Source: a virus. From it: 51,608 nt of DNA. Under the pieces are notes generated by a model. It saw only the letters and a list, made by a program, of their open reading frames with translations, was not told the DNA's origin and did no database searches. The DNA lies in IMG/VR virus record IMGVR_UViG_3300020215_000010, one strand, 5' to 3'. Positions 2,723-51,608 of the stretch are shown piece after piece. Position 1 is the stretch's first letter, and each line of letters begins with the position of its first letter. A program made the translations under genes and the position numbers.

Positions 2723-2739
2723 CTTGCGGTTATCGCAAG
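2723..2739. promoter_or_regulatory. operator, perfect 17-bp palindrome CTTGCG-N5-CGCAAG
   Basis: Read directly; lies between the divergent cro and cI starts. Confidence 0.65.
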
Positions 2740-2745
2740 CCCCAA

Positions 2746-2762
2746 AATGCGGAATTCGCACT
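2746..2762. promoter_or_regulatory. second operator-like site AATGCG-GAATT-CGCACT
   Basis: TGCG/CGCA core half-sites with the same 5-bp spacer, centre 23 bp from the first site. Confidence 0.5.
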
Positions 2763-2798
2763 TACGGCCGCAAGCCTTGCCGGACTACTTATGAACCT

Positions 2799-3137
2799 AT
2801 GGATCTGGAGTGGATTCGTAAGGGCTTGAGCAAGCCCGGGAAAACGCAAGCTGGACTGGCGAAAGCCATCGGCCGCAGCGAATCCGTGGCATCCCGCATA
2901 CTTTCGGGAGAACGCGAGATAAAATCGCGCGAAATCCCCAAGATCGAGGCGTATCTAGGCGACAGCCCCAACGGCCACGCCAAAGCCATGCCCAGCGGCG
3001 GCCTGCCGACCCCGGAGGAAATTGCCGAGGCCCGCAAGGTTCAGGAGATCCTGCTCAAGATCGCGGGCGTGCCCCAGGACGATAAGAGCTTGGCCGCTTC
3101 CCTCGAAATCGTGCGCCGGGTGAAGGCGGGCAGCTAA
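2799..3137 (+). CDS. CI-like XRE-family repressor (112 aa, no S24 peptidase domain)
   Basis: GKTQAGLAKAIGRSESVASRILSGER HTH; ATG 2799 in frame within track ORF 2724..3137. Confidence 0.7.
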   Translation: MDLEWIRKGLSKPGKTQAGLAKAIGRSESVASRILSGEREIKSREIPKIEAYLGDSPNGHAKAMPSGGLPTPEEIAEARKVQEILLKIAGVPQDDKSLAASLEIVRRVKAGS

Positions 3138-13286: not shown

Positions 13287-13640
13287 GTGGACGACCCCTG
13301 GCTGACAGCAGACGAGGCCGCCAAGGAGCTGCGCTGTTCCCCGGGAACGGTGCGCCGGGAGCGGCTGGACGGCAGGCTCGGCTATGCTACCGTGCGCGGC
13401 CGGGTGTTCTACCCCCTCTCCCAAATCGAAGCCTACAAAGCGGCACAGGTTAAAGCGCCATGCCAGACTACCGACTCGCCAAGATCCCCGGCAGTCCCCG
13501 TTGGTACATCACGTGGACCGAGGGACACCGTAGCTTTCGCAGAACGACAGGCACGGCGGATCGCGAGCAGGCTACCCAAGTCCTCGCGGCTTTCGTCCTC
13601 GAAGCTGCGCGTGGTCCAGTCGTCGAACCGGCCGACGTAG
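13287..13640 (+). CDS. excisionase-like HTH protein
   Basis: WLTADEAAKELRCSPGTVRRERLDGRL MerR/Xis-type HTH; directly upstream of int; tail overlaps int by 181 nt. Confidence 0.6.
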   Translation: MDDPWLTADEAAKELRCSPGTVRRERLDGRLGYATVRGRVFYPLSQIEAYKAAQVKAPCQTTDSPRSPAVPVGTSRGPRDTVAFAERQARRIASRLPKSSRLSSSKLRVVQSSNRPT

Positions 13641-14641
13641 AGGTTCGGGAGGTGCTGGAAACCTACTACCGCGAGCACGCCTCCAAGCGCCCCAGCGCCG
13701 AACAGGCCAGGATCGCCAAGGCGCACCTGATTGCCTTCTACGGTGTGGCCCGGGGCACGGCCGTAACCGCAAAATCTCATTCTATGTATGAGGAAAAGCG
13801 GCGGTTGCAGGGGGCCGGGTTCCAGACCATCAACCGGGAGCGCATGGTGCTCCGGGCGGCCTTTAATCACTCCCGCAGGCACCACGGGCTGACCGTGGTC
13901 CCCTACGTGCCGACCATCCCAGAGGATCACCCGGACAACGACCCGGTAGAGCCCAAGGGCAGGCCGCTGAAGCTGGGCGAGGTGACGGCCCTGCTCAAGG
14001 CGTGCGCCTACGTCCACGAGTGGCGGTTCCTGCAAATGCTGATCGGCACCCTCTGCCGGCCGGATGCCGCCTTCGACTTCGAACCCGACAAACAGGCCGA
14101 CTTCGAGCACGGGCTTATCGACCTGAGCCCGCCGGGTCGGAAGCAGACCAAGAAGTTCCGGCCGGTGGTGCCCATGCCGCGATTCCTGCGGGATGAGTTC
14201 AAGCGGGCCGGCAAGGGGCCGTTTATCGCGTATCACGGGGAGGGCATCCGAAGCAGCAAGACGGCGTTCCGCCGGATGCGGGCGGATGCGGGGCTGGATG
14301 AGAGGGTCAACCCCTACTCGCTCCGCCATACGATAGCGCGGGAGCTGCGCCGTCGCGGGGTCCCGGGCGACCAGATCAGCATCATGCTCGGCCACCGCCC
14401 GCCGAACACCAAGCGGACCGACCTTATCTATGCTCCCTACGAGCCCGGCTATTGCCAGGATGCGAAGCGGGCCATCGAATCGATATGGGCTACCGTTGCG
14501 CGCAACTTGCGCGCTCCGGCCGGGCCTGCGGAAATCTTGAAACCTGCAAGAAAGGCCCGTAGAATAATGGTGGGTGCGACAGGGATTGAACCTGTGACCC
14601 CTACCATGTCAAGGCACCGCCCTAGGTTTCAGAGGAGCTAA
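13460..14641 (+). CDS. int: tyrosine integrase
   Basis: YSLRHTIAREL (HxxR), MLGH, LIYAPY catalytic region; arm-type N-terminus; last about 25 codons run through the attP core. Confidence 0.85.
   Translation: MPDYRLAKIPGSPRWYITWTEGHRSFRRTTGTADREQATQVLAAFVLEAARGPVVEPADVEVREVLETYYREHASKRPSAEQARIAKAHLIAFYGVARGTAVTAKSHSMYEEKRRLQGAGFQTINRERMVLRAAFNHSRRHHGLTVVPYVPTIPEDHPDNDPVEPKGRPLKLGEVTALLKACAYVHEWRFLQMLIGTLCRPDAAFDFEPDKQADFEHGLIDLSPPGRKQTKKFRPVVPMPRFLRDEFKRAGKGPFIAYHGEGIRSSKTAFRRMRADAGLDERVNPYSLRHTIARELRRRGVPGDQISIMLGHRPPNTKRTDLIYAPYEPGYCQDAKRAIESIWATVARNLRAPAGPAEILKPARKARRIMVGATGIEPVTPTMSRHRPRFQRS
14568..14614 (-). other. attP core: 47-nt 3' part of a tRNA-Val(GAC)-like gene (anticodon loop to CCA), not a complete tRNA
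   Basis: Minus strand reads TTGACAT loop, GGTAG, GGGTC, ACAGG-TTCAATC-CCTGT T-arm, CGCACCC-A-CCA; the 5' anticodon-stem partner is absent. Confidence 0.75.
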
Positions 14642-14675: not shown

Positions 14676-15143
14676 ATGTCAGAATCAGGCAGATCAAACC
14701 GCGAACAGCGCGCAAGTTGCGCGCGTTGCATTTACTTCGTCCGGGCGGGGGCCAAAGGGCCGGTCAAGATCGGGTATGCCGTCAGCGTGGCGGAGCGGGT
14801 GGCGCTCCTACAAACCGGGAACCACCTCCCCCTGCTGCTCCTCGGCGTCTACCCCGGGACGGTAGCCCTTGAGTCGATGCTTCACGCAAAGTTCGCGCGC
14901 GAGCGCATACGCGGCGAGTGGTTCAAGCCGAGCGCCCGGCTACTGCGCTACATCGCCAACCTGAACACCGACTTCGATGCTCACGGCCACGACAAAATTT
15001 GGCGGGAGGAGATGATTAAGCGCATGGCCCGGGAGCACAGAGACGAAGGCTACCGTAAACGGGCGGCCCGGTCCTTCGGCATCAAGCTGCCCGGGAGGCC
15101 GGCGTTGCCGGGCGAAGGGCAGGGCCGGGTATCAGCGGTATAA
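14676..15143 (+). CDS. T5orf172 / MUG113-type (GIY-YIG superfamily) domain protein
   Basis: IYFVRAGAKGPVKIGYA...LQTGNHLPL...LHAKFARERIRGEWF. Confidence 0.65.
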   Translation: MSESGRSNREQRASCARCIYFVRAGAKGPVKIGYAVSVAERVALLQTGNHLPLLLLGVYPGTVALESMLHAKFARERIRGEWFKPSARLLRYIANLNTDFDAHGHDKIWREEMIKRMAREHRDEGYRKRAARSFGIKLPGRPALPGEGQGRVSAV

Positions 15144-15199
15144 TGCCGAAGCCGCCGTGTTCCGGCGCACAACCGAGATCAAGTAGGAGCCCCCAGTCC

Positions 15200-32954: not shown

Positions 32955-33754
32955 GACGCCCTTCCGTATTTCTGCTTGGCTTCGCGGTAGCGCTCCTCGG
33001 CCTTGAGCCTCGGAAGCTCCGAGTACATGCGGTGTGCGATCAGCTTCTCGTCCTGCGAGAGCGGTGCGGCACGGGTTGACGGTCGCGCGCCCGCGTCATC
33101 GGACAGCACGTTCGCGGCGGTGCGCTGCACGGTCGGCGTGCCCATCAGGCGGTCCACCTCGCGCAGGCAGGCGGCAACACCCTGGGTCGTGAACTCCGGG
33201 TCCTCGAACACGCCGGCCGCCGTGCTCACGGCGCGCCTGTTCTTTGGATGACCGGCCTGTGCCCACGGGCGCTTGAAGTTGCCGTTGGCATCCGTTTCGG
33301 CCTGCCACGCCTGAATCGCGACCTGAACATCGGGGGGCAATAAGGCGGGCTCCGCTTGGCCGTTTCCGGCCGGCGGCTTTTTGGCCGCCAGCTTTTCCTC
33401 GGCCTTCAGCTCGGCGATGCTTTCGGCGGCATCCCCGGCGGCCTTGAAGTCGGCCCGCTCCAGGGCGGCGGTGTGCTTCTCTTTCAGCTCGGCAATCGCC
33501 TTGGCCCGGCCGCGCTGCTCGGCTTCCGCCTCCAGGCGCTGCTGGTTCTCGACGATCAGCCGCATCTGCGACGCCATCGAATCGATGACGCGCTCGTTCT
33601 GCTTCATGTGGCCGTAGACGCGGTTGAACCGGGCCTGCGTGTCCGGGTCCATCGGGACCGGCTTGCGGCCCTCTTCGCCCTGTGTGGGAGCCGGAGCCTG
33701 TTCGGCGGCCGGCTTGCTGTCAGGCGCCGGGGCCTGCTCCTGGGTGTCGCTCAT
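32951..33754 (-). CDS. scaffolding protein candidate
   Basis: Ala/Glu/Lys-rich coiled-coil; between portal and capsid genes. Confidence 0.55.
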   Translation of the reverse strand: MSDTQEQAPAPDSKPAAEQAPAPTQGEEGRKPVPMDPDTQARFNRVYGHMKQNERVIDSMASQMRLIVENQQRLEAEAEQRGRAKAIAELKEKHTAALERADFKAAGDAAESIAELKAEEKLAAKKPPAGNGQAEPALLPPDVQVAIQAWQAETDANGNFKRPWAQAGHPKNRRAVSTAAGVFEDPEFTTQGVAACLREVDRLMGTPTVQRTAANVLSDDAGARPSTRAAPLSQDEKLIAHRMYSELPRLKAEERYREAKQKYGRAS

Positions 33755-34041
33755 GATTCGATGCACCACGCCCCGAGGATGTCCTCCTCGTGGCAGATGA
33801 AGCGCTCGACACCGTCGATCTTGATCCAGTCGCCGCTGTTCTTCTTGAACAGCACCTTCTGGCCCTTGAGGCGCTTGATATCGTCATCGGCCGTCTTGCC
33901 GACCGCGATGATGATCCCCTCGGCCGGGGCGTTGCGCTTCTCCGCTGTCTCGGGAATGATCAGGGAGGTGGTCTTCTGGATGGACTCGCGCTCAAGCAGC
34001 ACAAAAGCCCAGAAGGGGTGAAACCCCTGGGTAACGCTCAT
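33751..34041 (-). CDS. GroES-like co-chaperonin
   Basis: LIIPETAEKRNAPAEGIIIAVG...KGQKVLFKK...EEDILG aligns with GroES blocks. Confidence 0.65.
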   Translation of the reverse strand: MSVTQGFHPFWAFVLLERESIQKTTSLIIPETAEKRNAPAEGIIIAVGKTADDDIKRLKGQKVLFKKNSGDWIKIDGVERFICHEEDILGAWCIES

Positions 34042-34115
34042 GACACACTCGTAAGTTGTTGATCCGACGCGCTGATTACCCGTGCGGAAGCGTCGATTTT
34101 CCGCCGGGATTCGGC

Positions 34116-34121
34116 TATAAT
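34116..34121 (+). promoter_or_regulatory. perfect TATAAT -10 box 6 nt upstream of the lipoprotein ATG (leaderless-type promoter)
   Basis: ggcTATAATccgggcATG read directly; the -35 is weak. Confidence 0.45.
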
Positions 34122-34127
34122 CCGGGC

Positions 34128-34700
34128 ATGGCAAAGCGCCTCGGATTAGTCCTGGCTCTGGCAATTTCGCTGGGGGGTTGTGCGGCTTCAGCGCCGCACG
34201 AGATCGACCCGTCGTCTATCAGGCCGCTCGTGGAGTTCGTCGAGCGCGAGACGGGTTACAGGCTCGATCCACTGCCCAGAATCATCGTGGACAGGGAGAG
34301 AATGTCGAAAGACTGGTCAGGTTCGGCCAGTGTGTTTGCTTACGTGCCCCAGGCATCGTTCTCCGCGTTCAGCGGCGAACCGATTGTCTACCTTGACCAC
34401 ACCCGCTATATGCCCGGCACCTCACAATGGAATGCCGCCATCGTCCACGAGCTGGTGCACTACGGCCAGTATCTGACCTACATGGCGGCGGTGCGGGCAG
34501 GACCCGCCGCTGTCACCGAATTACGCAGCCGCAAGGGCTGGGTCTGTACAAGGTCAACAGAGATCGAGGCAACGAACGCCGAGATCCGGTATCTCCGAAA
34601 CCACGATCCCGTTTATGCCCGCCGCATGGAGGCAGTAAATCTTGCCGAGTATTCCGCCTGCGTCAGCGGCTACAAGCCAACGCTATTTGGCCGACCCTAG
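34128..34700 (+). CDS. lipoprotein with HExxH zinc-metallopeptidase motif
   Basis: MAKRLGLVLALAISLGGC lipobox; VHELVHYGQ; opposite strand to the surrounding operon. Confidence 0.6.
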   Translation: MAKRLGLVLALAISLGGCAASAPHEIDPSSIRPLVEFVERETGYRLDPLPRIIVDRERMSKDWSGSASVFAYVPQASFSAFSGEPIVYLDHTRYMPGTSQWNAAIVHELVHYGQYLTYMAAVRAGPAAVTELRSRKGWVCTRSTEIEATNAEIRYLRNHDPVYARRMEAVNLAEYSACVSGYKPTLFGRP

Positions 34701-34708
34701 GGGGCGAA

Positions 34709-34882
34709 ATGAAACCGTTTTTGGCCGCTATGTTTCTTGTCGCTGCGGCGCTGCCGGCGCTCGCTCAAACCCTGGCTTGCGGGATTCCCCCGCTCGCGCC
34801 GCTCGGCTGCATCACCGGCCGACCCGTCTGTGTGTGTGATGCCGCCGGTAATTGCGGTTGGGTTTTTGTCGGCTGCTTCTAG
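34709..34882 (+). CDS. secreted Cys-rich peptide (57-aa precursor)
   Basis: Signal MKPFLAAMFLVAAALPALA; 6 Cys in the 38-aa mature part; GGGGGCGAA upstream. Confidence 0.5.
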   Translation: MKPFLAAMFLVAAALPALAQTLACGIPPLAPLGCITGRPVCVCDAAGNCGWVFVGCF

Positions 34883-36195
34883 GAGCTGAGTATCGCTTCC
34901 AACAGCGCCCGCGTCTGGTTCGGGGCGGCAATGCCCCGCGAGCCCAGATAGCCGAGTTCCGTACCCAGCAGGTTGGCAAAGTCCGGCATCTGGCCGGCGT
35001 CTGAGATCAGCCCGCGCTGGGTCAGGTTCTTCCAGTAATCGAATGCTTCGTCGGTGGCCCACTTGCCGCCCGTGCCCTGTGTGGCGAAGGTGGCGATCTT
35101 GGCGCGGCGCTGGAGCGGATCGTCGGACTCGAAGTCGAGGAACGACGGCGCATCCATCGCCGCGGGGCGGCTGAGGCTGGTCGGCGCGGCAACATTGCTC
35201 GGCTTAACGAAGGGGGAACCAACGCCGCCCTCGCTGCCGCCAGTATCGCCGCCGGGCGCGGGATCGGCCTTGCCGGTTCGCGCGCTGTCCCGTTCCATTG
35301 TCGCGTCCAGTAGCGAGACAAGTCCGTTGATTGCCGTGCCGGGCCCAAGGCCCAATACAGAGTTGACCACGGCCTGCTGCGACATCATACCGGGGTTTTG
35401 CGGGAAACCCGCCTTCTCGGCGGCTTTCTCCATGACGCTGCGAAACCCGCCGACCGGTGCTTGGCCCGGAGCCTGACCCGAACCGCCGCCGGTTCCGCCA
35501 GTAGCTCCGCCCGGACCCGGGCCGCCGACGCTGCCGGCCTGCCCGCCCTGGTGGCCGGGGGCGCCACCCGGATTGGGACCACCAATTGCGCCTTCGCCAA
35601 ATCCGCCCATGCCGTGAGGATCGCTGACATTGCCGCCGAGCCCTCGCCCGCCGGCACCCGTGTTGCCGCCCTGTGTGCCGGCGCCGTCCGGGCTGTCTTG
35701 GCTGTTGTCGTTGGAGGTGCTGTCCGTTGTGCCGCCGCCGCCCATGCCGCTGGAATCCTGCCCGCCCTGTCCGCCGGGACCACCGGGGCCGTCGCTCCAG
35801 AACTCCAGCAATCCGGTCTGCGGGTTGATCGAGCCGCCGTCCGTGTTCTGGTGAAGCATCTGCGCTTCTTGCGGATTGATGTGCGCCAGCACGGTATCGC
35901 CCATGCGGCCCTGCTGCTGCAGGGCAAACGCCATCCGCTTCAGTTCGTCCTGATACCCGCTGCCCATGCCGGGCATCGGACCCATGCCGGCGGGGTTGCC
36001 TCCCAATGCACGCAGGAAGGCCGCCGCCGTCGCATCGCTGGGCGCGGAACCAACCGCCTGACGCGCCATCTCCGCGCCTCGGCCGCTGACCTTCCCCGCG
36101 TTGGGATCGCGGTACCGGCCCATGCCCATCGTGCGCGCCATCTCCGGGATCATCCGGGAGCGTGACGAGCCGTAATTCGCCGCCTGGGTATGCAT
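34879..36195 (-). CDS. Gly-rich virion-associated protein
   Basis: 438 aa; GDTVLAHINPQEAQML...GSINPQTGLLEF motif, then a low-complexity Gly region of about 150 aa. Confidence 0.55.
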   Translation of the reverse strand: MHTQAANYGSSRSRMIPEMARTMGMGRYRDPNAGKVSGRGAEMARQAVGSAPSDATAAAFLRALGGNPAGMGPMPGMGSGYQDELKRMAFALQQQGRMGDTVLAHINPQEAQMLHQNTDGGSINPQTGLLEFWSDGPGGPGGQGGQDSSGMGGGGTTDSTSNDNSQDSPDGAGTQGGNTGAGGRGLGGNVSDPHGMGGFGEGAIGGPNPGGAPGHQGGQAGSVGGPGPGGATGGTGGGSGQAPGQAPVGGFRSVMEKAAEKAGFPQNPGMMSQQAVVNSVLGLGPGTAINGLVSLLDATMERDSARTGKADPAPGGDTGGSEGGVGSPFVKPSNVAAPTSLSRPAAMDAPSFLDFESDDPLQRRAKIATFATQGTGGKWATDEAFDYWKNLTQRGLISDAGQMPDFANLLGTELGYLGSRGIAAPNQTRALLEAILSS

Positions 36196-36197: not shown

Positions 36198-36404
36198 CTA
36201 TTCGTCCTTCGGTAACTCGTTGCTAAGCTGGAGGGGCAGCTCCCTGAGAAAGTCCGCCACTTCCCGCCATCCCTGGACCTTGCTCAGCCTGTCCTGCGTA
36301 GCTGCCGTCTTCCATGCCTGCTCCGGGAACCTCCGGTCCAGGGCGGCCAGCACCCACCGGGTCGTCGGCTCCTGGAGCCAGTCCTTGAGCGTTTGCCTGT
36401 CCAT
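36198..36404 (-). CDS. hypothetical protein (68 aa) nested over the portal 3' tail
   Basis: GC3 very high in this frame and about half in the portal frame over the same bases. Confidence 0.55.
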   Translation of the reverse strand: MDRQTLKDWLQEPTTRWVLAALDRRFPEQAWKTAATQDRLSKVQGWREVADFLRELPLQLSNELPKDE

Positions 36405-38331
36405 TCATCTGCATCCCTTGGTTCATCACCCCCGACATCATCACCGCATGGGCCTTGACGTGCTCCATCAGCAGCGAGCGGCCGAGCGAGGACAGCGCCG
36501 ATACCGGGTTGTTCAACTCCGCCATGTGAAGTTGGAGGTGCATCTGGTGGTCCTGGTCCGGGAAGGCCATCGGCATCATCGGCGTCTGCTGGAGCGCCAG
36601 TAGATTTTCCATCCCCGGATCGTCGATCCGCATCATCATGGTATTGCCCGGGTTGGGCAGGATTTCGTCGATGTTCTCCGACTGCATCGCTTCCAGGTAA
36701 CGGCGCGAGGCGTTGTAGAGGTGCTGGGGCGAGTTCAGGACCAGCGGGTTGGTTGACAGGAACTGCCACTCCGCATTTGCTTTTGTAAGCCGCTGCTGCT
36801 CCGTCGCCATCTTGGGGTCGGCAACCGGAAGGATCTGAAGGTCGGGCGCGTAGTCCTCTCTCGCGACGGTGAACTGCTTGAGTTCCCCGGCGACATCGAG
36901 GACCGCGAAGTATTCCTTCGGGTCGAGGAATTTGTGGTTGAGGCGGTAGAGCTTTGAAAGCTCGTTCGACCACGCCTCGTTGATCCGCTCGTAGACCGAG
37001 GAGAAGACCTGTAGCGACTGCTCGATAAGAGCCAGCAAGGCGGTAGGCTGAACAACCTTGTCGGTCTGCCCCGTGATCGCCTCGGTTACCGTTGCCAATC
37101 GGTCGGAGCGGGCCGCGAGCAATTCGATGGCCTGGAGCATCGAGACCTGGGGGCCGGGATACTTGGGGACCCAGATGCCCTTTTGCAAATCTTCCACAGA
37201 GCCGGGGACCTTGACGAACTGGCCCAGCTTCATCTGGATTTCCCGGCCTTCGATGCCCCCAAGCTGCTGGGACATGAATCCGGAATTGTTGCCGACATTG
37301 GCCAGCGTGGCCGCGTCGATGAACTGGCGGAGAAGCTTGTTCACGCTCGCGTTGGGCTGGGAGATCAGATGCCCCAGTCCAAGGCCATAGAACCCGTCCG
37401 GGTTCTCCATATAGGGGTAGTGGGTGAAGTACTCGACTGGCTCCTTGTCCGCCGTGGGATTACCCAGCTCATCCGTATCGTAACGGACGACAATGCGGAG
37501 CACCTTCCGGGTCGCGGCGTCAACCGTGACGACGTAGGGCTCCTCTATTCCATCGTCGTCCAGATCGAGCAGCCGGTGCTGCTCCAGCAGGACCACGGGC
37601 TGATAGACGATCATCCCGGGCTCGGTCAGGCCATGCGACTGGTCGTGCGCCCGGTCGATGTTGTTCTTGGCCTCATCCCATACAGCGGGAGTGCCTTCGT
37701 CGATGAAGACGCCCTTCTCCTTGAGGATGCGCGTCTTGTTGACCGACATACGGATGATGTGCGTCTTGCGCTCTATGTCCTCCAATTCACGGGGACCCAC
37801 CCCGTAGGAAACCGTGAGGTCGATGGCGCGGACGTTATCGACGATGTTCCGCTTGCGGGCCGGGCAGTAGTACGACTTGGTGAACACCGAGCCGTGGAGG
37901 GGAACGCCGAGCAGAAGGCGGTCCTTGCCCCGCTTGTAGAGCTTGTCCTTGACGGTGCACTGCCAGGCCATATGCGCGCCCACGCGCTTGGCCCGCTCAA
38001 TCGAATGGGAGTCGTCCTTGCCAACCGGGATGGCCTTGATGAAGTTCCGGCTGGGGAACATGGCCTTGTAGGCTCTGGCTGCAAACTGGGTGCAGCCCTC
38101 GGCCAGCAGCGGTAATGATTCGCTCGAAGAGCCTTCCCACGGGGGGTTCTTCGGCTTGTCGTCCTGGTAATACATCTTGAGCCAGAAAGCGTGCTTCTCG
38201 ATCCATTGCTTTCTTGACTCCTCGTCGTGCCGCCACTCCTCGTAGACCCGGTTGCCGATCTCGGTCAGTTCTTTCTCGTCGAGCTTTGCCGCGATATTCC
38301 GTGTTTCTGGGTGCAGGAATTCGTCGCTCAT
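36223..38331 (-). CDS. portal protein
   Basis: 702 aa; PPWEGSSSESLPLLAEGCTQFAARAYKAMFP resembles the podovirus portal N-region; position upstream of scaffold and capsid. Confidence 0.7.
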   Translation of the reverse strand: MSDEFLHPETRNIAAKLDEKELTEIGNRVYEEWRHDEESRKQWIEKHAFWLKMYYQDDKPKNPPWEGSSSESLPLLAEGCTQFAARAYKAMFPSRNFIKAIPVGKDDSHSIERAKRVGAHMAWQCTVKDKLYKRGKDRLLLGVPLHGSVFTKSYYCPARKRNIVDNVRAIDLTVSYGVGPRELEDIERKTHIIRMSVNKTRILKEKGVFIDEGTPAVWDEAKNNIDRAHDQSHGLTEPGMIVYQPVVLLEQHRLLDLDDDGIEEPYVVTVDAATRKVLRIVVRYDTDELGNPTADKEPVEYFTHYPYMENPDGFYGLGLGHLISQPNASVNKLLRQFIDAATLANVGNNSGFMSQQLGGIEGREIQMKLGQFVKVPGSVEDLQKGIWVPKYPGPQVSMLQAIELLAARSDRLATVTEAITGQTDKVVQPTALLALIEQSLQVFSSVYERINEAWSNELSKLYRLNHKFLDPKEYFAVLDVAGELKQFTVAREDYAPDLQILPVADPKMATEQQRLTKANAEWQFLSTNPLVLNSPQHLYNASRRYLEAMQSENIDEILPNPGNTMMMRIDDPGMENLLALQQTPMMPMAFPDQDHQMHLQLHMAELNNPVSALSSLGRSLLMEHVKAHAVMMSGVMNQGMQMNGQANAQGLAPGADDPVGAGRPGPEVPGAGMEDGSYAGQAEQGPGMAGSGGLSQGAAPPA

Positions 38332-38855
38332 TTACGCGGCTGCGCTAGGTAATGGCGCATGGCTTCGAGCAGATATGTCTGCTTGTCCGTGTACGTCCCG
38401 GACTTGCGCCACTCGTCCCTCTCATCGGGCGCGAGGTAGCCTCTGATGTATGCGTCAAGCCATGACCTATCCATCCAGTCATCGTAGGAACGGGTTTCCT
38501 TGCCGCTGCTGTGAAGCTGGTTGTATTTGCGCCTGTCGAATTCGCGCTGCTCTGGCGTAAGAGAGCCCCGGAACTGTTCTCGAAAATCCCTGAACTTGGG
38601 ATCGACCTGCGGCATGTAGTGCAGCATGTCGCCAAAAACCGCGCGCTGGAGCGCGTCGCCCGTTAGGTTCTTGTCGTAAACTTCGATGGTGGGTCGGCCG
38701 GGGTACGGATTTGTCGGCTCGTCCGGGTTGAAAAATTCAAGGCTGCCGCCGTATTGCGACACATCACCGCGACGAGCGGCCCAGTTATGCCCAGAGAGGG
38801 CGGGGTACTGGTTCAGAATATTCGAGATGACTGGGGCGAACTCGTCCTCAGACAA
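38328..38855 (-). CDS. hypothetical protein upstream of portal
   Basis: 175-aa ORF, ATGA-coupled. Confidence 0.5.
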   Translation of the reverse strand: MSEDEFAPVISNILNQYPALSGHNWAARRGDVSQYGGSLEFFNPDEPTNPYPGRPTIEVYDKNLTGDALQRAVFGDMLHYMPQVDPKFRDFREQFRGSLTPEQREFDRRKYNQLHSSGKETRSYDDWMDRSWLDAYIRGYLAPDERDEWRKSGTYTDKQTYLLEAMRHYLAQPRK

Positions 38856-40401
38856 CTACGTCGCTCATCTCGGCGCGTCTGCGAACACGGGAATTCCAGA
38901 TATGCGGCACCATGCCGGGGCCGTACATCTCGACATCGATCATATAAGGCATGTCGAGGACCCGGGCGATGTCCTGGCACTGGGCGATCTTTTCATGGTC
39001 GGTGACGAATTCCTTGCCGTCGATGGTGACCTTGACGAATTTCGGCTGGCCGCGCTTGTCGAGCGTCGAGAAGTCGATCTTGTCCGTGTCGGGATAGGAG
39101 CAGTCGTAGCCGTAGCCCTTGAACTTCCTGAAGCCGATGGCGTGCAGGATCGAGATGCCGCGCATGGCCGCCGAGCAGCCGCCGGGAATGAGAAAATGCC
39201 CCTCGCCCAATCGCTGGGCGACGACATCCTGCTCTCCCGCTCCGACCTGGGCATGGTAGCCATAGACCCTCGCTTTCTTCTCGATGAGGCGGTCAATCGT
39301 GGTTGGATGGACCATTGAGGCGACGAGGTAGCGCACCTCGGGATGGGGGTTCTCGATAAAGTCCTGGACGTGCGAGCGGGGATCGAGGAGCACGCAGGCC
39401 CACGGGATTATTCCCTGGGCAATCAGGTCGTCATGCGCCGACTTGACGCAGACGACGTAGTGGTTGGGCTTCTGCTGAAGCTCCTTGATGGTCTCGTAGT
39501 AGTCCTTGAGGCTGGGGCCGCCGGAGCAGAACACGGCGATGCCGTCGTGAATCTTGCACTCGACCAGCCAGTCCTTGAGCAACGTGGCCGAATAATGGAC
39601 GTTGGCCCGGATGTTGACCTCGGGGACGCAGTTCTTGGTCTTGACCATGATCTCCATCCCTCCAGCGGAGGTATGGGCGATGGCCCCGATGCCCTTCATG
39701 CCGTCGGGGCGCTTCTGCTTCATCTTCTTCTTGGCGACCGGCCCCTTGTCGTGGCGCATCCTTGTGCCGAGGATGGACTGGTTGAATACCTCCAGCCCGG
39801 ATAGGTCGGCGCTGATGTTGTGCCACCAGCCTTCACGAAGCTGGTCGAACACGTAGGAGTCGTGCCACTCCTTCATGTTGAAGATTTCGCCCGTGACATA
39901 GGCGTTCCTGAACTTCGCCAGGAACTCGTCCGCCCGGTATTGAGTATTGAACCCGACGAAGCCGCACTCCGAATGCGGCCAGTCCTTGCGACCGAGGTAG
40001 GAGCCCGCGAATCCCTCGGGGCAGACCGCTTCGACGAATTCCTCGTCCACCTTGGCGTGGGTCTCTATGTCGGCATCGAGCCAGATCCACCACTGAGCCG
40101 CTTTGCTGGCGATCCGCTTGGGATCGGTCAGGGCAAAGACCTTGTGGCTGAAGCGCACGGCCTGGAAGCGGTAGTCCGACGAGGTGTCGAACTTCTCGTC
40201 CATGAACTTCTGCCGGTCCGCGTCCTGGTCGAGATCGACATAGGTAATGCGCGGGGACTGGATATCCGGCTTCGTCCCCTCGTAGTAGACCCACAGGGGG
40301 ATCGAGACGGGCCAGTGCTTCAAGTAGGATTCGATGAAGCGTCTGCCGTAAAGCCCGTAGTGCTTCCGGCCGAACGTGGTGACGCAGGCAAAGCGTGTCA
40401 T
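38848..40401 (-). CDS. two-domain glycosyltransferase: GT-A-like N-domain plus MptE/Maf (DUF115)-like C-domain
   Basis: WLDADIE (DxD); AVFCSGGPSLKD, VVCVKSAHDDLIAQGIIPWACVLLDPR, GGCSAAMRGISILHAIGF..GYGYDCSY. Confidence 0.6.
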   Translation of the reverse strand: MTRFACVTTFGRKHYGLYGRRFIESYLKHWPVSIPLWVYYEGTKPDIQSPRITYVDLDQDADRQKFMDEKFDTSSDYRFQAVRFSHKVFALTDPKRIASKAAQWWIWLDADIETHAKVDEEFVEAVCPEGFAGSYLGRKDWPHSECGFVGFNTQYRADEFLAKFRNAYVTGEIFNMKEWHDSYVFDQLREGWWHNISADLSGLEVFNQSILGTRMRHDKGPVAKKKMKQKRPDGMKGIGAIAHTSAGGMEIMVKTKNCVPEVNIRANVHYSATLLKDWLVECKIHDGIAVFCSGGPSLKDYYETIKELQQKPNHYVVCVKSAHDDLIAQGIIPWACVLLDPRSHVQDFIENPHPEVRYLVASMVHPTTIDRLIEKKARVYGYHAQVGAGEQDVVAQRLGEGHFLIPGGCSAAMRGISILHAIGFRKFKGYGYDCSYPDTDKIDFSTLDKRGQPKFVKVTIDGKEFVTDHEKIAQCQDIARVLDMPYMIDVEMYGPGMVPHIWNSRVRRRAEMSDVVV

Positions 40402-41852
40402 TTCAGCCCAAATAGTGGGGAGTCAACCTCCCCGATGATGTTGATGTATTTCCGGTAGCCATCGCCCTTCAGTCGAGGAGCGACCCCGTGCACCGAGTCC
40501 GGCGTGTTGAGGAAGAACAGAACGGTTCCGGGAAGGCACTCAATCGTCTCGACGATCTCGACGCTTCCGGGCTCCGCTTCCGCTTTCTTGACCATGCCCT
40601 CGCGGCCGACAAACGAGCGCGGACCCTTCCAGCGATAGATTTCAAGCTCGCCGCCGCCGAGATAAACCAGGCCCGCATAAAGTTCCTTCGGGTCATCGAT
40701 GTGGGGTCCTCTCACCGATGAGGTTTCCTCGACCGGTGTATTCACCGCGAACTGGCAGTCGAGGCGGAACGGTTGCTTATCCCTGCCCCTAACCCCGGCG
40801 GTGAGCGGGAGGGACCCCAGTTGCGGATAGAGACGACGGATCTCGGGGGCGAAGATGAGGAACAGCTCGTTGAGGAACTGCTCCCCGGTGTGAAGCTCGA
40901 AAAACTCGCGCCAGAAGGCGGAGGTGGATTCGTCGCCGAGGACTTCGCGGGCCGAGCGCTGGTAGAGGGTGTTCTGTTTTGCCGGTCGGCCGAGGATGAT
41001 GTCCGCAGGATCGGGGAAATTCTTTTCAAGCTGTTCCAGGTAAACCGGGTCAAGCCGGCCAGCAATGTAAGGGAATGGCTTGACACGGTCCCTCCTTTCA
41101 ACAAGGGCGCCAAGAACGGATTTCAGCCGAACGCCTGGGTTATGCCGTAGCGGTTCAGCAGGTTTTGCTCCCACGTCAGCCGGGGCGTGGTGGCGGTACT
41201 TGCCCTGGACCGGGACCTTGAATCCTTCGTCGCTCGTTTTTCTGAGGGCGCAGACGAGCATGATGTTCTTGTCGGTCGGTTCCGGTCTTTTGATCTCTTT
41301 CGGGTCGATGTTTTCGATGAGGACATTGCCATCCCGATCCCCGGCGTACATCTCAAGGATTTCGTAGCCGTTGGCGTGAGCAAGATCGAAGAACAGGACG
41401 GGGTTGAAGTTGTAGAAACCGTGGTTCCGCCAGTTGATCCACGGCAGCACGTGCAGGATCACCCCCCTTCGTTTGCAGAGGTTGTGACAGGTCTCGAAGA
41501 TGGCCGCCTGGTTGAAGATGTGCTCGCCGGTTCCGTTGTTGGTGACGAGGTCGGCCGGCTCTAGATGCGGGTACGGTGTCGTCGCAGCGCTGGTGGCAAT
41601 TTCGATCTCCTTCGGGATACTGATAACCGTTCGATTCAAATCGAGGCTAACCGTCCCCTTCCCGTCGAAGTCGATGGACTCGTAGCGGGTAAACCCGAGG
41701 AAATCGTAGTAGTCGGGCACGTCCTTGAACGTGCGGTCCTTCAACTGGAAGGTCAGGGTCTGCGAGCCAAGCTCGATCACCGAGAGGTCCTGGCCCTCGA
41801 TGTGCTGGCGGACTTTCATCACCGCCTTGCCGGCCATCGGATTGAATGTCAT
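40398..41852 (-). CDS. class-I SAM methyltransferase fused to a P4H-like 2OG-Fe(II) oxygenase
   Basis: VIELGSQ, ADLVTNNGTGEHIFNQ...GVILHVLP; C-domain PHIDDP (HxD), YAGLVYLGGGELEIY, DSVHGV. Confidence 0.55.
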   Translation of the reverse strand: MTFNPMAGKAVMKVRQHIEGQDLSVIELGSQTLTFQLKDRTFKDVPDYYDFLGFTRYESIDFDGKGTVSLDLNRTVISIPKEIEIATSAATTPYPHLEPADLVTNNGTGEHIFNQAAIFETCHNLCKRRGVILHVLPWINWRNHGFYNFNPVLFFDLAHANGYEILEMYAGDRDGNVLIENIDPKEIKRPEPTDKNIMLVCALRKTSDEGFKVPVQGKYRHHAPADVGAKPAEPLRHNPGVRLKSVLGALVERRDRVKPFPYIAGRLDPVYLEQLEKNFPDPADIILGRPAKQNTLYQRSAREVLGDESTSAFWREFFELHTGEQFLNELFLIFAPEIRRLYPQLGSLPLTAGVRGRDKQPFRLDCQFAVNTPVEETSSVRGPHIDDPKELYAGLVYLGGGELEIYRWKGPRSFVGREGMVKKAEAEPGSVEIVETIECLPGTVLFFLNTPDSVHGVAPRLKGDGYRKYINIIGEVDSPLFGLK

Positions 41853-42457
41853 TCAAACACCATCACGCAGTCGCGGTTCACCTTGTCGGCGCGTCTCCAG
41901 CCCCAGGACTGGAGGATCAGCACGCCATCGTTGACGTTCGTCGCGTTCTCCTCGATCAGGATCACGGGGCGGTGCTTCAGCAATGTCTGCCGTCCGCCCT
42001 CAAGTACGTGTTCCTCGAAGCCCTGAACGTCGATCTTCACGAAGTCCGGGGCGAGGTCGTAGGTGTCGAGTGGCATGACGGGGACTAACTCGACGTTGTC
42101 GTATTTCATTTCTTTCGTTTCCCAAGCGCCGGAGTTTTCCGCCTTGGGCGTGTCCAGTGCTCCCCAGCACTGCCGTGAGCCGAGCGCGACGTTGTGCAGG
42201 ACGGCGTTATCCGGCCGGTTCTTCTTCAGGCAGGCGAAGTTCTCGGGTTGAGGCTCAAAAGCCACCACCTTCTCGAATCTCTTGCCCAGCGCGCGGGTGA
42301 AGAACCCGACATGCGCGCCGATGTCGATGGCTAGCCCGAAGCGCTTGACGTGCCTTAGAGCCGCTTCAAGCTGTTTAGACTGATAGGTGCCGGCGAGGGC
42401 GAAGGGGGCGAAGTGCGTGTCATCGTCGGGAAGCCAGAACTGGCCGGCCTGTTTCAC
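41849..42457 (-). CDS. FkbM-family methyltransferase
   Basis: AIDIGAHVGFFT and FVKIDVQGFEEHVLEG. Confidence 0.65.
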   Translation of the reverse strand: MKQAGQFWLPDDDTHFAPFALAGTYQSKQLEAALRHVKRFGLAIDIGAHVGFFTRALGKRFEKVVAFEPQPENFACLKKNRPDNAVLHNVALGSRQCWGALDTPKAENSGAWETKEMKYDNVELVPVMPLDTYDLAPDFVKIDVQGFEEHVLEGGRQTLLKHRPVILIEENATNVNDGVLILQSWGWRRADKVNRDCVMVFE

Positions 42458-43212
42458 GCGCTTTCCTTCAGCCTGTCCCAGATTGAGGGTCTGGGGTTTC
42501 TCATCCGGGAGCGTTCAAGCTCCCACAGCCCGCCGTGCTCGATAAACCACGGGGCCTTTTCCGAGTAGTGGACCGCCTTGGGTGTTACATCCGGTGACAC
42601 ACCCTGTATCCAGTTCCACTCGGGAGGTAGCTCTCCGATATCCTCGTCCTTCAGCCAGGAGAAGGAATGCAACCACGAGCCGGGTTTGTGGTTCACCACG
42701 TCAACCGTCAGATCGGCGTTGAGCGGGTGCTGGAGGTTGAACAGCACGAGGCTCGACCAGTTTTTGCGGTGGTATGAAGTCTGGGCTACCCCGTCCATCT
42801 TTACAGAGTCAGTAGGGGTGTGACGGTGCTTGACACACATCACCGCAAATCTTTCGTCCGCGAGAGCGAACAATTCCTTGATATTGGCCTGAAACAGAAA
42901 GTCGCAGTCCATGAACGCCGCCCATTTGGCAGAGGGCACGTCGCGCTTCGCCAGCAGGTAAGTCAGCCAGCGAGAATGGGAGAACTCGGTCGAGAATGGC
43001 TTTCCATCACGCTCGTCAACGTATTGACCTGTCTCCCCAACTCTCCAGGGTCGGTCGAACAGGCCCTCCGCTCTCAAGGTGCGGTGCTTCAGGGGCCGGA
43101 TATAGGTTGAGGCTTTGGTGCGGTCGATGATCGAGAAGCGGCAGACCTCGTAGGCGTCCTGTTCGCGACTGTCCCACCCGATATAGATCGGCAAGACCTC
43201 AGAATCGGTCAT
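42454..43212 (-). CDS. GT8-like (GT-A fold) glycosyltransferase
   Basis: PIYIGWDSRE start, FMDCDFLF DxD, KNWSSLVLFN. Confidence 0.55.
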   Translation of the reverse strand: MTDSEVLPIYIGWDSREQDAYEVCRFSIIDRTKASTYIRPLKHRTLRAEGLFDRPWRVGETGQYVDERDGKPFSTEFSHSRWLTYLLAKRDVPSAKWAAFMDCDFLFQANIKELFALADERFAVMCVKHRHTPTDSVKMDGVAQTSYHRKNWSSLVLFNLQHPLNADLTVDVVNHKPGSWLHSFSWLKDEDIGELPPEWNWIQGVSPDVTPKAVHYSEKAPWFIEHGGLWELERSRMRNPRPSIWDRLKESA

Positions 43213-43957
43213 TCAGTATTCTCCACGCCGTCCCGTTCCTCATCTCATCGAGGCGAAACTGGTGATAAGCGAGCGCGTGGCACCAGCGCTCGCGCGGCGG
43301 CCACCAGGGTTTTTCGATGTCCTCGAACACCCACGAAACCGTCTCGCACGCCGACTCGCCCAGCACCACGGCCGGAACCCCCGCCAGCAGCGCATCGACG
43401 GCGCTGTTCGATGAATGCGTGACGACGCACCAGCAATCGCGCAACGCGTCCGAAATCTCCCCCTCTCCCTTGGGCTTGACCACGATAGGCCGGGAGGTGT
43501 TGCGGCTAATCTCCGTCGTCACTGTCCGCAACCACTGATCCGCATTGATGCCGTAGAACCCGGCGATAGCCCCGGTCAACGGGATGACCAGCACGTGCCG
43601 GCCGTCCTTGCGCCACGGGCTCAAGCCGAGGTTCAGGTCTTTCCAGCGGTTCTCGGGGTAGACGTATTCCCCCTGGTCAGGGAGGTCGGCCTGCCGGCCG
43701 TTCTTCGTCACCCGGTAGAAGCCTTCATAATGTCCGGGCTTGAAATACCCGTGGTCGATGTAGAAGAAATCCCGCTGCACCCACTCGCATTGCTTCAGGA
43801 TTTCCCCCGTTCCCCGCAGGATGCCGTACATGGCGGCGGGTCCCTCTAGGAGCTGCGTAGGAGGGACGATCCTGCCCTTACACCCTTCGGCAAACGCACT
43901 CATGATCACCTTGGAGTGCTGGTGGTCGGTGGTGTAGCAGCAGGGTTGGCTAGTCAT
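43199..43957 (-). CDS. GT-B-like / capsule-synthesis-like glycosyltransferase
   Basis: HVLVIPLTG...VVTHSSNSAVDALLAGVPAVVLGES Rossmann-type C-terminal block; ATG 43957. Confidence 0.45.
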   Translation of the reverse strand: MTSQPCCYTTDHQHSKVIMSAFAEGCKGRIVPPTQLLEGPAAMYGILRGTGEILKQCEWVQRDFFYIDHGYFKPGHYEGFYRVTKNGRQADLPDQGEYVYPENRWKDLNLGLSPWRKDGRHVLVIPLTGAIAGFYGINADQWLRTVTTEISRNTSRPIVVKPKGEGEISDALRDCWCVVTHSSNSAVDALLAGVPAVVLGESACETVSWVFEDIEKPWWPPRERWCHALAYHQFRLDEMRNGTAWRILNDRF

Positions 43958-44150
43958 GCAACACCGGGATATCGAACTCCACTCGCGGCCATAGCGTGAA
44001 CGAACGGCCGTCGCCATCCGGCGTGGCGAAGTATTCCAGTGCCAGGCGTTGCGCTTCCCATTCGTGCGGCGCGGCGACGACGTAGGAGACGCGCTTTCTG
44101 GTCCCCGTCCCGGAGACAAAGGTGACGGGGCAGCGCCAGGCGGTTGTCAT
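43950..44150 (-). CDS. hypothetical protein (66 aa)
   Basis: ATGA overlap with the terL stop. Confidence 0.45.
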   Translation of the reverse strand: MTTAWRCPVTFVSGTGTRKRVSYVVAAPHEWEAQRLALEYFATPDGDGRSFTLWPRVEFDIPVLHD

Positions 44151-51422: not shown

Positions 51423-51550
51423 GCGAGCTTGCCCAGCAGCACGGCGACCGCAAGCCCCCAAGCCACCGCGCGGCCCCATACGGTCGGCGCAATAAGCGTC
51501 GTGCAAATGAGTAGCCAGAAAACCAGCCGGTAAATTTGCTCATCGGTCAT
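51419..51550 (-). CDS. small membrane protein (43 aa) spanning the repeat/junction
   Basis: MTDEQIYRLVFWLLICTTLIAPTVWGRAVAWGLAVAVLLGKLA; ATGA-coupled at both ends. Confidence 0.45.
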   Translation of the reverse strand: MTDEQIYRLVFWLLICTTLIAPTVWGRAVAWGLAVAVLLGKLA

Positions 51551-51608
51551 GCGATCTGGCCCGCTGCCTGTACGCGGCGCTTCAGGTCTTTGCGCTTCTC
51601 TCCGTTCA
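51482..51608. repeat. second copy of the 127-bp terminal repeat
   Basis: Identical to 1..127. Confidence 0.9.

Follow-up and report, generated by a model that had tools for sequence, protein, structure and literature searches.

A predicted leaderless, antisense accessory cassette encoding a zincin-like lipoprotein of the DUF6647 family and a six-cysteine peptide in the head-gene region of a temperate phage

Described systems closest to the cassette

Morons are typically genes that lie antisense to the lytic genes of a phage and have a promoter of their own (PMC7067206). Lambda bor, a lipoprotein gene in the late region of a temperate phage that is antisense, has its own promoter and is absent from related phages (PMC7067206), resembles in these respects the two-gene cassette described here, whose own promoter is, for this comparison, a putative one deduced from a conserved -10 element. 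However, the cassette has no sequence relationship to bor or to other morons in the Juhala/Hendrix definition, such as lom and rexAB, and it differs from bor in having two cistrons, a zincin-like motif and a first cistron that appears to be leaderless, and in lacking a terminator. Alphaproteobacteria commonly have leaderless mRNAs (PMC4117421). In the mRNA of lambda cI transcribed from PRM and in about 10% of Caulobacter coding sequences, as in the first gene of the cassette, the -10 element ends 6 nt upstream of the A of the start codon and a Shine-Dalgarno sequence is lacking (PMC4117421), whereas the cassette has a weak -35 region and its 5' end is predicted from the sequence.

The lipoprotein encoded by the first gene can be compared with three groups of proteins. 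DUF6647 is an uncharacterised family that has been proposed for peptidase clan MA (PMC11467057). Its members resemble the lipoprotein in size and share with it the HELxHxxQ helix, the ExEA motif, a conserved pair of Cys residues and an export signal at the N-terminus, but the lipoprotein contains two insertions of ~10 and ~17 residues and is encoded by a phage, while the canonical members are found on the chromosomes of Rhodospirillales and Micavibrio-like bacteria. In the predicted structure, HExxH lies on one long helix of what looks like a small alpha/beta zincin core, with a Glu-bearing helix further downstream, and this arrangement recalls the minigluzincins and the M56/M48 peptidases (proabylysin 4jiu, BlaR1 8exq/8exr). 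These are the top fold matches in the PDB, yet at Foldseek E values of 0.017-3, with TM scores of ~0.3-0.5 and no significance at the sequence level, and the lipoprotein is predicted to be a lipid-anchored soluble domain in contrast to the integral-membrane M56/M48 proteins. Finally, T5 Llp, phi80 Cor and TP-J34 Ltp are phage lipoproteins that act in superinfection exclusion at the cell envelope. They offer a functional analogy for the role proposed below but no homology, as judged by PHROG, Pfam and PADLOC searches, and they act by binding and blocking; to our knowledge none of them is a metallopeptidase.

The cassette, its two products and its setting

The window, meaning the whole stretch of 51,608 nucleotides that was analysed, is a complete circular genome of ~51.5 kb that was assembled as a free circle. 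The phage encodes an integrase, an HTH_3 regulator, Erf, YqaJ and SSB, and since it has an integrase and an HTH regulator it is called temperate; judged from its genes, it belongs to a small lineage of the SU10-portal type. Its portal protein is at most 34% identical to that of any phage isolate, no tRNA was found in the window, and megablast and tblastn searches of 50,697 phage records returned no match to the region or to the lipoprotein. Scans of viral and metagenome sequences with the Cpn10 protein gave only a contig that was already known, and a scan of viral sequences with the lipoprotein profile gave no additional members of the phage clade. The cassette consists of two antisense genes between a Gly-rich late gene and a GroES-like gene of the head module (Table 1). 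The earlier note had described them as the only plus-strand genes within about 30 kb, in agreement with the public gene calls over 20 kb and with our survey of open reading frames and GC3 over 16.7-51.6 kb.

Table 1. Features of the cassette and its surroundings, in positions of the window.
Feature	Position	Strand	Remarks
GroES/Cpn10-like gene (context)	33751..34041	-	Pfam Cpn10, 7.8e-13; first late gene downstream of the insertion; ATG at 34041
Divergent intergenic region, 86 bp, between GroES-like gene and lipoprotein gene	34042..34127	.	~40-70% of columns invariant, promoter block excepted
Conserved block GGCTATAATCCGGGCATG	34113..34130	+	Putative -10, discriminator and start codon; 18 nt
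Putative -10 hexamer TATAAT	34116..34121	+	Perfect match; spacing would put +1 at the A of ATG 34128
Inverted repeat TAATCCG...CGGATTA around start codon	34118..34148	.	In 4/4 loci, loops of 9-27 nt
Gene 1, predicted lipoprotein, 190 aa, divergent DUF6647 zincin-like domain	34128..34700	+	Basis: dN/dS, hhalign, homologue model
Predicted signal peptide with lipobox, residues 1-18	34128..34181	+	Cys18 codon at 34179-34181; conforms to lipobox rule
HELVH, H107-E108-x-x-H111, extended HExxHxxQ with Q114	34446..34460	+	The two H, the E and the Q are invariant, or almost so, across the family
E145-I-E147 (ExEA motif of the family), candidate third metal ligand	34560..34568	+	E145, E147 and A148 nearly invariant; metal-ligand role putative
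G-run Shine-Dalgarno of gene 2	34700..34704	+	Anti-SD duplex -9.3 kcal/mol
Gene 2, 57-aa precursor	34709..34882	+	Predicted signal peptide 34709-34765; six-Cys mature peptide, 38 aa, 34766-34879
CTAG common to the convergent stops of gene 2 and the Gly-rich gene	34879..34882	.	Plus-strand TAG 34880-34882, minus-strand TAG 34881-34879
Gly-rich late gene, 438 aa (context)	34879..36195	-	Convergent with the cassette; adjoins the Cpn10 gene directly in relatives

Gene 1 is carried by four diverged loci, and homologues lie in the same position in L001-L005. The earlier note would have given up its reading had homologous phages shown the region to be non-coding, but both open reading frames are conserved and under purifying selection. 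The site is empty in five related phages (L040, L041, L044, L045 and L046; capsid 64-73% identical), in all of which the upstream late gene abuts or overlaps the Cpn10 gene on the same strand. The GC3 values of genes 1 and 2 are 0.71 and 0.67, respectively, against 0.80-0.90 in the neighbouring genes. When the window was compared with the sister phage L001, the lipoprotein was 68.5% and the Cys domain 44% identical, while the portal, Cpn10 and capsid proteins were 90-97% identical, and this comparison of sequences shows that the cassette evolves faster than the neighbouring genes. By sequence comparison, the cassette is an insertion that was gained by a single small phage lineage. The proposal that it is a moron agrees with the empty site, the deviant codon composition and the conserved -10 element. 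The cassette has no terminator of its own: its last stop codon overlaps that of the convergent gene in the CTAG reported earlier, which we found again in the sequence, and the only terminator-like hairpin (34841-34858) was rejected on the grounds that it sits within gene 2 and lacks conservation. The 4-nt overlap with the stop of the Gly-rich gene is kept in all four loci, including those in which gene 2 is fused or absent.

The first product had been described as a lipoprotein with an LGGC lipobox and a VHELVH zincin motif, and both elements hold. K3/R4, the hydrophobic core LGLVLALAISL and L-G-G-C18 agree with the PS51257-type rule (a positive n-region, a hydrophobic core and [LVI][ASTVI][GAS]C within the first ~35 residues), and HELVH occupies residues 107-111. 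Gene 1 shows dN/dS values of 0.17-0.33, at dS values of 1-1.6 that are saturated. According to the PS51257-type regular expression, a lipobox is present in 11 of the 12 subfamily members and in 5 of 112 canonical DUF6647 members, while HExxH occurs in all 112 of the DUF6647-like matches; H107, E108, H111, Q114, C140, E145, E147, A148 and C178 are the residues conserved in the family. By profile comparison, gene 1 is a divergent, lipobox-bearing branch of Pfam DUF6647 (PF20352): when the phage-clade profile was aligned with 32 PF20352 proteins using hhalign, the probability was 99.3% with an E value of 2.5e-20 over 129 columns, and a profile search also joined the clade of gene 1 with DUF6647. 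The window protein itself falls below the gathering threshold of the Pfam HMM, with no DUF6647 match at E<=1, and its relatives P0013 and P0017 pass at 34-35 bits against a cut-off of 24.1.

In the AF2 model of P0003, a fused homologue that is 69% identical, the core has pLDDT values above 90; HELVH aligns with the long helix 101-126 of this model, and E145 and E147 with the next-but-one helix. The top Foldseek matches are all zincins (BlaR1, anthrax LF, abylysin and a viral 'Peptidase' of BFVD at E 6.8e-3), and they are weak, at E 0.017-0.14 for the PDB and TM scores of 0.3-0.5 for AF2 models. A sequence-profile search of the PDB gave nothing significant, the best match being proabylysin at E 0.38. 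Searches of Pfam, PHROGs, NCBIfam and PADLOC returned nothing significant for either protein of the cassette, the sole Pfam trace being a weak match to eCIS_core/DUF4157 (E 0.14). We call the domain zincin-like on the basis of the motif, the DUF6647 homology and the weak fold matches, none of the structural matches being significant. The public gene call (P0001) starts the lipoprotein at an internal GTG and so loses the signal peptide, which we regard as an annotation error.

For gene 2, the 57-aa precursor with six Cys in 38 mature residues was found as described, with a signal peptide of the Sec type and a predicted cleavage between ALA and QT. The Cys residues are spaced C-9-C-6-C-1-C-5-C-6-C, and all six are kept in three loci, at pN values of 0.15-0.37 against pS values of 0.76-0.84. 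In the L005 locus, GGGGGAAGG occupies the place of the gene 2 Shine-Dalgarno. The peptide is an orphan: a search of 5.8 billion proteins returned the window's own protein only, and a Cys-rich partner is absent downstream of 26 chromosomal DUF6647 genes. An assignment as knottin or inhibitor cystine knot was not supported, with no Pfam match and no homologues outside the phage clade, and the AF2 prediction of the Cys domain has low confidence (pLDDT 53-62). The earlier note had proposed to look for the pair in other genomes, and three arrangements were found: the two genes stand separately in the window and in L005, the lipoprotein of the sister phage L001 (P0003) carries the Cys domain, stripped of its signal peptide, as a C-terminal fusion, and L004 has an intact lipoprotein under purifying selection and no Cys-rich gene. 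The fusion in the sister phage links the products of genes 1 and 2 functionally, and since gene 2 is fused in one phage and absent in another, it looks, from these sequences, like a dispensable partner domain of the lipoprotein, not an immunity protein.

The TATAAT block and the start of gene 1

A perfect TATAAT had been reported 6 nt upstream of ATG 34128, and it is indeed there, separated from the start codon by CCGGGC; this spacing between the -10 and the A of the ATG is what one would expect of a leaderless mRNA. The window contains two copies of the hexamer against 2.5 expected, so that its presence alone is within chance, but its position and conservation go beyond chance. In the block GGCTATAATCCGGGCATG, 17 of 18 positions are invariant across the four loci (P ~1e-6), compared with 15/38 and 26/70 positions (~38%) in the flanks, and the block is unique in the window even when three mismatches are allowed. 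Gene 1 has no Shine-Dalgarno, its anti-SD duplex reaching -2.5 kcal/mol against -9.3 for gene 2, and its closest homologues elsewhere (L032, L033 and L097) have ordinary GAGG or GGAGG leaders. At the sequence level, the conservation of GGCTATAATCCGGGCATG supports an own promoter and a leaderless start for gene 1. The -35 region is poor (TCGATT, 34093-34098, 3/6) and unconserved, an extended -10 is absent at the TATAAT site, and a sigma-70 promoter scan made no call there. Other genes of the window are likewise without a strong Shine-Dalgarno.

Since the discriminator is invariant and a palindrome surrounds the ATG, the block could instead serve as an RNA hairpin on the late antisense transcript or as a regulator-binding site. 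In one reading of this kind, the TATAAT block would not be a plus-strand promoter but would act in cis on the minus strand, in the late transcript or promoter, either as a hairpin for processing or stability ahead of the GroES, scaffold and capsid genes or as a leftward GATTAT -10, and the mRNA of the lipoprotein would start elsewhere. Consistent with this, the block lies within inverted repeats that can fold on either strand (z = -3.3 for the plus and -2.3 for the minus strand in L001), GATTAT retains the critical A2 and T6, and the discriminator is invariant, which a -10 alone would not demand. Against it, the inverted repeat shows no compensatory changes or covariation across the loci, its loop varies from 9 to 27 nt, and its z-scores in the window are only -0.9 and -1.6. 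In addition, gene 1 has no other possible start further upstream in the 86-bp intergenic region, it is without a Shine-Dalgarno, and its signal peptide needs ATG 34128. We consider it improbable that the block acts on the minus strand instead of as a plus-strand promoter; the two roles are mutually compatible. A further imperfect copy of the repeat lies upstream at 34103-34111, and Rfam gave no match for an RNA element. A reading of AATCCGGGC as an operator was rejected, since it is not enriched (18 matches in the window against 22 expected) and no second palindrome was found.

Proposed function and competing explanations

Judged from its sequence, the cassette is probably an accessory ("moron") module expressed in lysogens. 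In the best explanation, it is a two-gene accessory module encoding a leaderless, lysogen-expressed envelope zincin and a Cys-rich partner, and we put the probability of this reading as a whole at roughly 0.6. The host sigma-70 RNA polymerase would start at the A of ATG 34128 through the conserved TATAAT and, mainly in lysogens, would make a leaderless mRNA that covers both cistrons and runs against late transcription without depending on it. The lipoprotein would be exported, lipidated and disulfide-bonded, presenting a small zinc-metallopeptidase domain in the periplasm, while the Cys-rich mini-protein would be exported separately, oxidised and bound to the lipoprotein, serving it as an accessory domain for targeting or regulation. 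The pair may then act proteolytically on a protein of the envelope or of an incoming phage, and the likeliest benefit to the lysogen would be superinfection exclusion or surface remodelling. Against this explanation stand the poor promoter context described above, the overlap with the convergent stop in place of a terminator, the position of the window protein below the Pfam DUF6647 threshold with non-significant structural matches (best E 0.007-0.14), the silence of PADLOC, PHROGs and NCBIfam, and the assembly of the phage as a free circle.

The same two products could instead form a zymogen or inhibitor pair, in which the Cys-rich mini-protein is a tight-binding inhibitor or a pro-domain and the zincin stays latent until released by a trigger, be it lysis, envelope stress or an attacking phage. 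Small disulfide-rich proteins are well known as inhibitors of metalloproteases. The C-terminal fusion in P0003 is reminiscent of zymogens among the minigluzincins, for example proabylysin, in which the C-terminal tail occludes the cleft, and proabylysin is also the best (non-significant) PDB profile match and appears in the Foldseek lists. However, gene 2 resembles no inhibitor family, and the zincin of L004 is intact without a Cys-rich gene, so that inhibition is not obligatory. The strict protease-inhibitor pair suggested in the earlier note is thus weakened by a partner that is fused to the zincin in one phage and missing in another, and we regard a zymogen or inhibitor pair as unlikely. 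The same distribution, fused in cis in L001 and absent in L004, tells against the bacteriocin-like pair that had also been suggested. In such a toxin-immunity arrangement, one product would be an exported toxin and the other would protect the producer, which would fit two small exported proteins and the weak eCIS_core match, as the zincin domains DUF4157 and Tox-MPTase occur in polymorphic toxins (PMC11467057). But the lipobox would tether the gene 1 product to the membrane of the very cell that makes it, genes for export or processing are absent, and bacteriocin, toxin and defence models gave no matches; we find this arrangement scarcely credible.

The location of the cassette inside the late region would suit a function in the lytic cycle, in which its products would be expressed during infection and help virions to leave the cell or the envelope to be remodelled, for instance through cleavage of outer-membrane proteins or proteins associated with peptidoglycan. 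Phage lysis does involve lipoproteins, the o-spanins among them. This is nevertheless rather unlikely: the cassette opposes every late gene and should be silenced by late transcription running into it, relatives that share the head module do entirely without it, which means that the lytic cycle does not need it, and its consensus host-type -10, a hexamer found just twice in the window, is unlike the rest of the late region. Returning to the lysogen-expressed module, we can make its mechanism more specific, although in this form we consider it unlikely: a lipid-anchored DUF6647 zincin, guided by the fast-evolving six-Cys peptide as a recognition module, may cleave the ejection proteins of an incoming phage, or the receptor, in the periplasm. 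If such protease-based exclusion or envelope editing proved true, it would be the first function for DUF6647 and a new mechanistic class of prophage-encoded phage resistance.

The cassette, probably a moron, is a neat instance of a type of phage feature that is already known, and its practical weight is limited by the fact that the phage is known from metagenomes only. If the above interpretations hold, it represents a minimal expression design, antisense and abutted by its promoter, with a leaderless first cistron and a second cistron led by a Shine-Dalgarno, and having neither a UTR nor a terminator would let a foreign cassette fit into a tightly packed late operon. DUF6647 would also be placed in a biological context for the first time, that of an accessory gene of a phage acting at the cell envelope, and the series of separate, fused and absent states would mark the orphan six-Cys peptide as a partner domain that the enzyme can do without. 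Beside the homologues in L032 and L097 there are genes of 64-79 aa that look HTH-like by eye and have no Pfam match, and we do not call them repressors. Two further homologues of the subfamily, P0007 and P0024, were also found in phage-like contexts.

The antisense cassette and its genome

The window closes with a copy of its own first 127 nt, which identifies it as a circular, complete assembly of about 51.5 kb (~51.48 kb). The phage is temperate, as it encodes a tyrosine integrase and an HTH_3 regulator together with Erf, YqaJ exonuclease and SSB, and it is distant from isolates, its portal being at most 34% identical to that of any of them. From ~16.7 kb to the window end the gene direction is the minus strand, and this region encodes terminase, MptE-like and FkbM-type enzymes, portal, a Gly-rich protein, a Cpn10-like protein, a scaffold-like protein and capsid. 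Within its head module, a plus-strand lipoprotein gene (gene 1) and a Cys-rich peptide gene (gene 2) form an antisense cassette between the Cpn10-like gene and the Gly-rich gene.

When we examined the sequence and the ORF table, all sequence-level statements of the earlier note were confirmed. It had called these the sole plus-strand genes within ~30 kb, which is consistent with the public calls for the same phage and a sister phage, where they are the only exceptions over 20 kb. The TATAAT reported 6 nt before the ATG of gene 1 is followed by CCGGGC and then by the ATG. The 190-aa product starts with MAKRLGLVLALAISLGGC and satisfies the lipobox rule with Cys18, as claimed, and the zincin motif noted there includes HELVH at residues 107-111. 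Gene 2, which is preceded by a G-run Shine-Dalgarno sequence, indeed encodes a 57-aa precursor with six Cys in 38 mature residues and a predicted AxA-type cleavage site (between ALA and QT). Its TAG shares the described CTAG palindrome with the TAG of the convergent Gly-rich gene; the stops overlap, no terminator exists between the two genes, and the 4-nt overlap is retained in four of four loci. The public gene call of the lipoprotein (P0001, 156 aa) starts at an internal GTG (window 34230) and thus misses the signal peptide and the lipobox, and this misplaced start is likely due to the true ATG having no Shine-Dalgarno sequence.

Coordinates of the cassette and of other features in the window
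Feature	Position	Strand	Remark
Terminal repeat	1-127 and 51482-51608		
HTH_3 regulator	2724-3137		
Tyrosine integrase	13460-14641		
Other TATAAT copy	15139-15144	+	end of T5orf172/MUG113 gene, just before strand-switch region
GroES/Cpn10-like co-chaperonin gene	33751-34041	-	Pfam 7.8e-13
Terminator-like hairpin, T-rich tail	34008-34031	-	within first 12 codons of Cpn10 gene
Cassette TATAAT	34116-34121	+	
Gene 1, lipoprotein	34128-34700	+	ATG at 34128
Gene 2, Cys-rich peptide	34709-34882	+	
Shared CTAG	34879-34882		
Gly-rich late protein gene	34879-36195	-	438 aa, convergent with gene 2
SU10-type portal	36223-38331	-	
Terminase-portal interval	38848-44119	-	

Several features surround the cassette. 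The GroES/Cpn10-like gene immediately precedes the scaffold and capsid genes and is kept in related phages (L039-L049); the nucleotides of the hairpin at its beginning, which may be an attenuator or stability element, are nearly identical in two homologous loci, L001 and L004. The terminase-portal interval, present in L001 too, encodes an MptE/Maf-like protein, an FkbM-type methyltransferase and a weak glycosyltransferase-like ORF, which suggests virion glycosylation or modification. The Gly-rich protein had no match in family searches; its N-terminal motif GDT(V/M)LAHINPQEAQ...NP.TGL is conserved in relatives L044 and L047, and its C-terminal region shares 38% identity with a gene in the phage-like contig L097.

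Conservation, insertion and expression signals

In a search of 5.8 billion proteins, gene 1 had only three close homologues (63-69% identity), all of which occupy the equivalent interval, flanked by the Cpn10 and Gly-rich genes. The pairwise dN/dS of gene 1 was 0.17-0.33, with synonymous sites near saturation, and the Cys-rich peptide showed pN of 0.15-0.37 versus pS of 0.76-0.84, a substitution pattern which indicates that both are real genes. The cassette diverges faster than its neighbours, with identities of 68.5% for the lipoprotein and 44% for the Cys domain versus 90-97% for portal, Cpn10 and capsid, and its GC3 is 0.67-0.71 versus 0.80-0.90 in the surroundings. Among 59 more distant relatives recovered through capsid, five cover the region (L040, L041, L044, L045 and L046); in these the upstream late gene abuts or overlaps the Cpn10 gene, with no opposite-strand ORF between them, and this uninterrupted junction is the empty site expected of a moron. 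At the neighbouring junction of another relative (L047, 4520-4890, minus strand), between a portal-side gene and the Gly-rich gene, lies an unrelated gene on the opposite strand, which encodes an exported protein of 122 aa that contains Cys, and its stop again overlaps the convergent gene. The head module of this lineage therefore tolerates such insertions.

The window contains two TATAAT copies versus 2.5 expected, so that the hexamer alone is not beyond chance, and a sigma-70 scan called no promoter at the site because the -35 (TCGATT) is weak. When four loci were aligned, however, 17 of the 18 positions of GGCTATAATCCGGGCATG were invariant, compared with 15/38 in the adjacent intergenic DNA and 26/70 in the adjacent coding DNA (~1e-6 by a binomial estimate). 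With its spacing to the A of the ATG, the hexamer has the geometry that is canonical for an mRNA beginning at its start codon, and the Shine-Dalgarno duplex is essentially absent for gene 1 (-2.5 kcal/mol) versus strong for gene 2 (-9.3). Where the nearest homologues occur in other genomic settings (L032, L033 and L097), they follow ordinary GAGG/GGAGG leaders and TATAAT is missing; the start abutting a putative promoter is therefore specific to the head-module insertion. Based on these observations, we infer a leaderless start for gene 1. The distribution of the family suggests a host in the Alphaproteobacteria, a class in which leaderless mRNAs occur commonly and are translated with good efficiency (PMC4117421).

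The same block could, instead or in addition, serve as a hairpin on either transcript or as a binding site, since the invariant AATCCGGGC and an imperfect copy upstream of it form an inverted repeat, as do AATCCGGGC and CCGGATT in codons 5-7. However, the loops vary among loci from 9 to 27 nt and compensatory changes are absent among them; in addition, the rest of the window shows no enrichment of the motif, and Rfam gave no match.

The lipoprotein and its Cys-rich partner

No library gives a name to the gene 1 protein, and an exhaustive profile search across 1.84 billion representatives yielded no more than 18 relatives. Pfam DUF6647 was matched by 12 of 20 aligned relatives, and a second search gave 142, mostly DUF6647 proteins of 150-175 aa encoded on chromosomes of Rhodospirillum centenum, Oleisolibacter, Rhodocista and Micavibrio-like MAGs. 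In a profile-profile comparison with 32 canonical members, the phage clade, which carries two insertions relative to them, matched with 99.3% probability (E 2.5e-20, 129 columns). The common signature comprises an export signal, IRP..EFVE..TGY, IYLD, HELxHxxQ, C...ExEA and a C-terminal Cys; HExxH occurs in 112/112 DUF6647-like relatives, while a lipobox is found in 11 of 12 proteins of the long-insert subfamily, the window protein included, versus 5/112 canonical members. It has been proposed from embedding similarity to DUF4157 that DUF6647 belongs to peptidase clan MA (PMC11467057), and the weak eCIS_core/DUF4157 matches obtained here agree with this similarity. In an AF2 model built from 67 sequences (core pLDDT above 90), an N-terminal helix and a small sheet accompany long helices that bear the HExxH and ExEA motifs. 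The best Foldseek matches were BlaR1 (M56), anthrax lethal factor, proabylysin, MATCAP and IrrE-like proteins, and in a viral library a 'Peptidase', IrrE, WLM, SprT and lethal-factor-like proteins, with E of only 0.007-0.14 over both sets. We conclude that the product is a zincin-like lipoprotein, probably of gluzincin type; its membership of the zincin fold has support short of proof, and catalysis is putative.

Elsewhere in the family, P0011 (344 aa) is a tandem duplication whose second domain has no HExxH, and L100 carries two adjacent copies of the gene (2-469 and 509-1135). Chromosomal DUF6647 genes of Micavibrio-like MAGs have a conserved inverted repeat, approximately GTGAAATCATCAC-N8-GTGGTGATTTC, about 40 nt upstream (L009, L010, L012-L014, L018, L019, L023 and L029), which may be an operator.

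The Cys-rich peptide had no family match, and a protein search gave nothing beyond this phage clade. L005 encodes it separately, with a Shine-Dalgarno sequence and a signal peptide of its own. In L001-L003, from three samples, a ~57-nt deletion took out the stop codon, the Shine-Dalgarno sequence and the signal peptide, and therefore placed the mature Cys domain in frame with the lipoprotein (P0003, 233 aa). The window peptide is ~42% identical to the other two peptides, which are ~85% alike, and has therefore undergone fast evolution or exchange. Since the junction in P0003 coincides with the predicted signal-peptidase site, the fusion shows that the two products would act together in the same compartment. 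In L004 the peptide is absent and the lipoprotein stop directly overlaps the Gly-rich stop, a natural loss showing that the peptide is apparently dispensable. Fusion and loss together speak against the peptide being an immunity protein or inhibitor of an obligatory kind, and we favour an accessory binding or regulatory domain.

Function of the cassette

The cassette is best explained as a moron, in which a host-type promoter would drive transcription against the late operon and yield a leaderless mRNA with two cistrons, one for a lipid-anchored zincin in the periplasm and one for its disulfide-rich partner. Antisense position and an own promoter typify prophage accessory loci expressed in lysogeny (PMC7067206). 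The classic lipoprotein example among such loci is lambda bor. Superinfection exclusion or envelope remodelling would be the most plausible benefit. The earlier note's interpretation thus stands for cassette structure and moron nature, while its bacteriocin-like and inhibitor readings are weakened by the fused or lost partner. Among the rival readings, a zymogen/inhibitor pair, a role in the lytic cycle and a minus-strand cis element in place of the promoter are each unlikely, and a toxin-immunity pair is highly improbable.

The cassette belongs to a known kind, the phage moron encoding an envelope lipoprotein, and is neat rather than surprising to a specialist. New are the divergent DUF6647 zincin-like protein, the orphan six-Cys partner with its series of fission, fusion and loss, and the unusually compact, putatively leaderless design. 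Two homologues of the lipoprotein subfamily, P0007 (L097) and P0024 (L032), also lie in phage-like DNA, and L097 carries homologues of two window virion genes, which suggests that this subfamily moves with phages. At the edge of L097 is a fragment of a LysR-type regulator (11167-11820, minus strand), which may be host flank, the element then being an integrated prophage.
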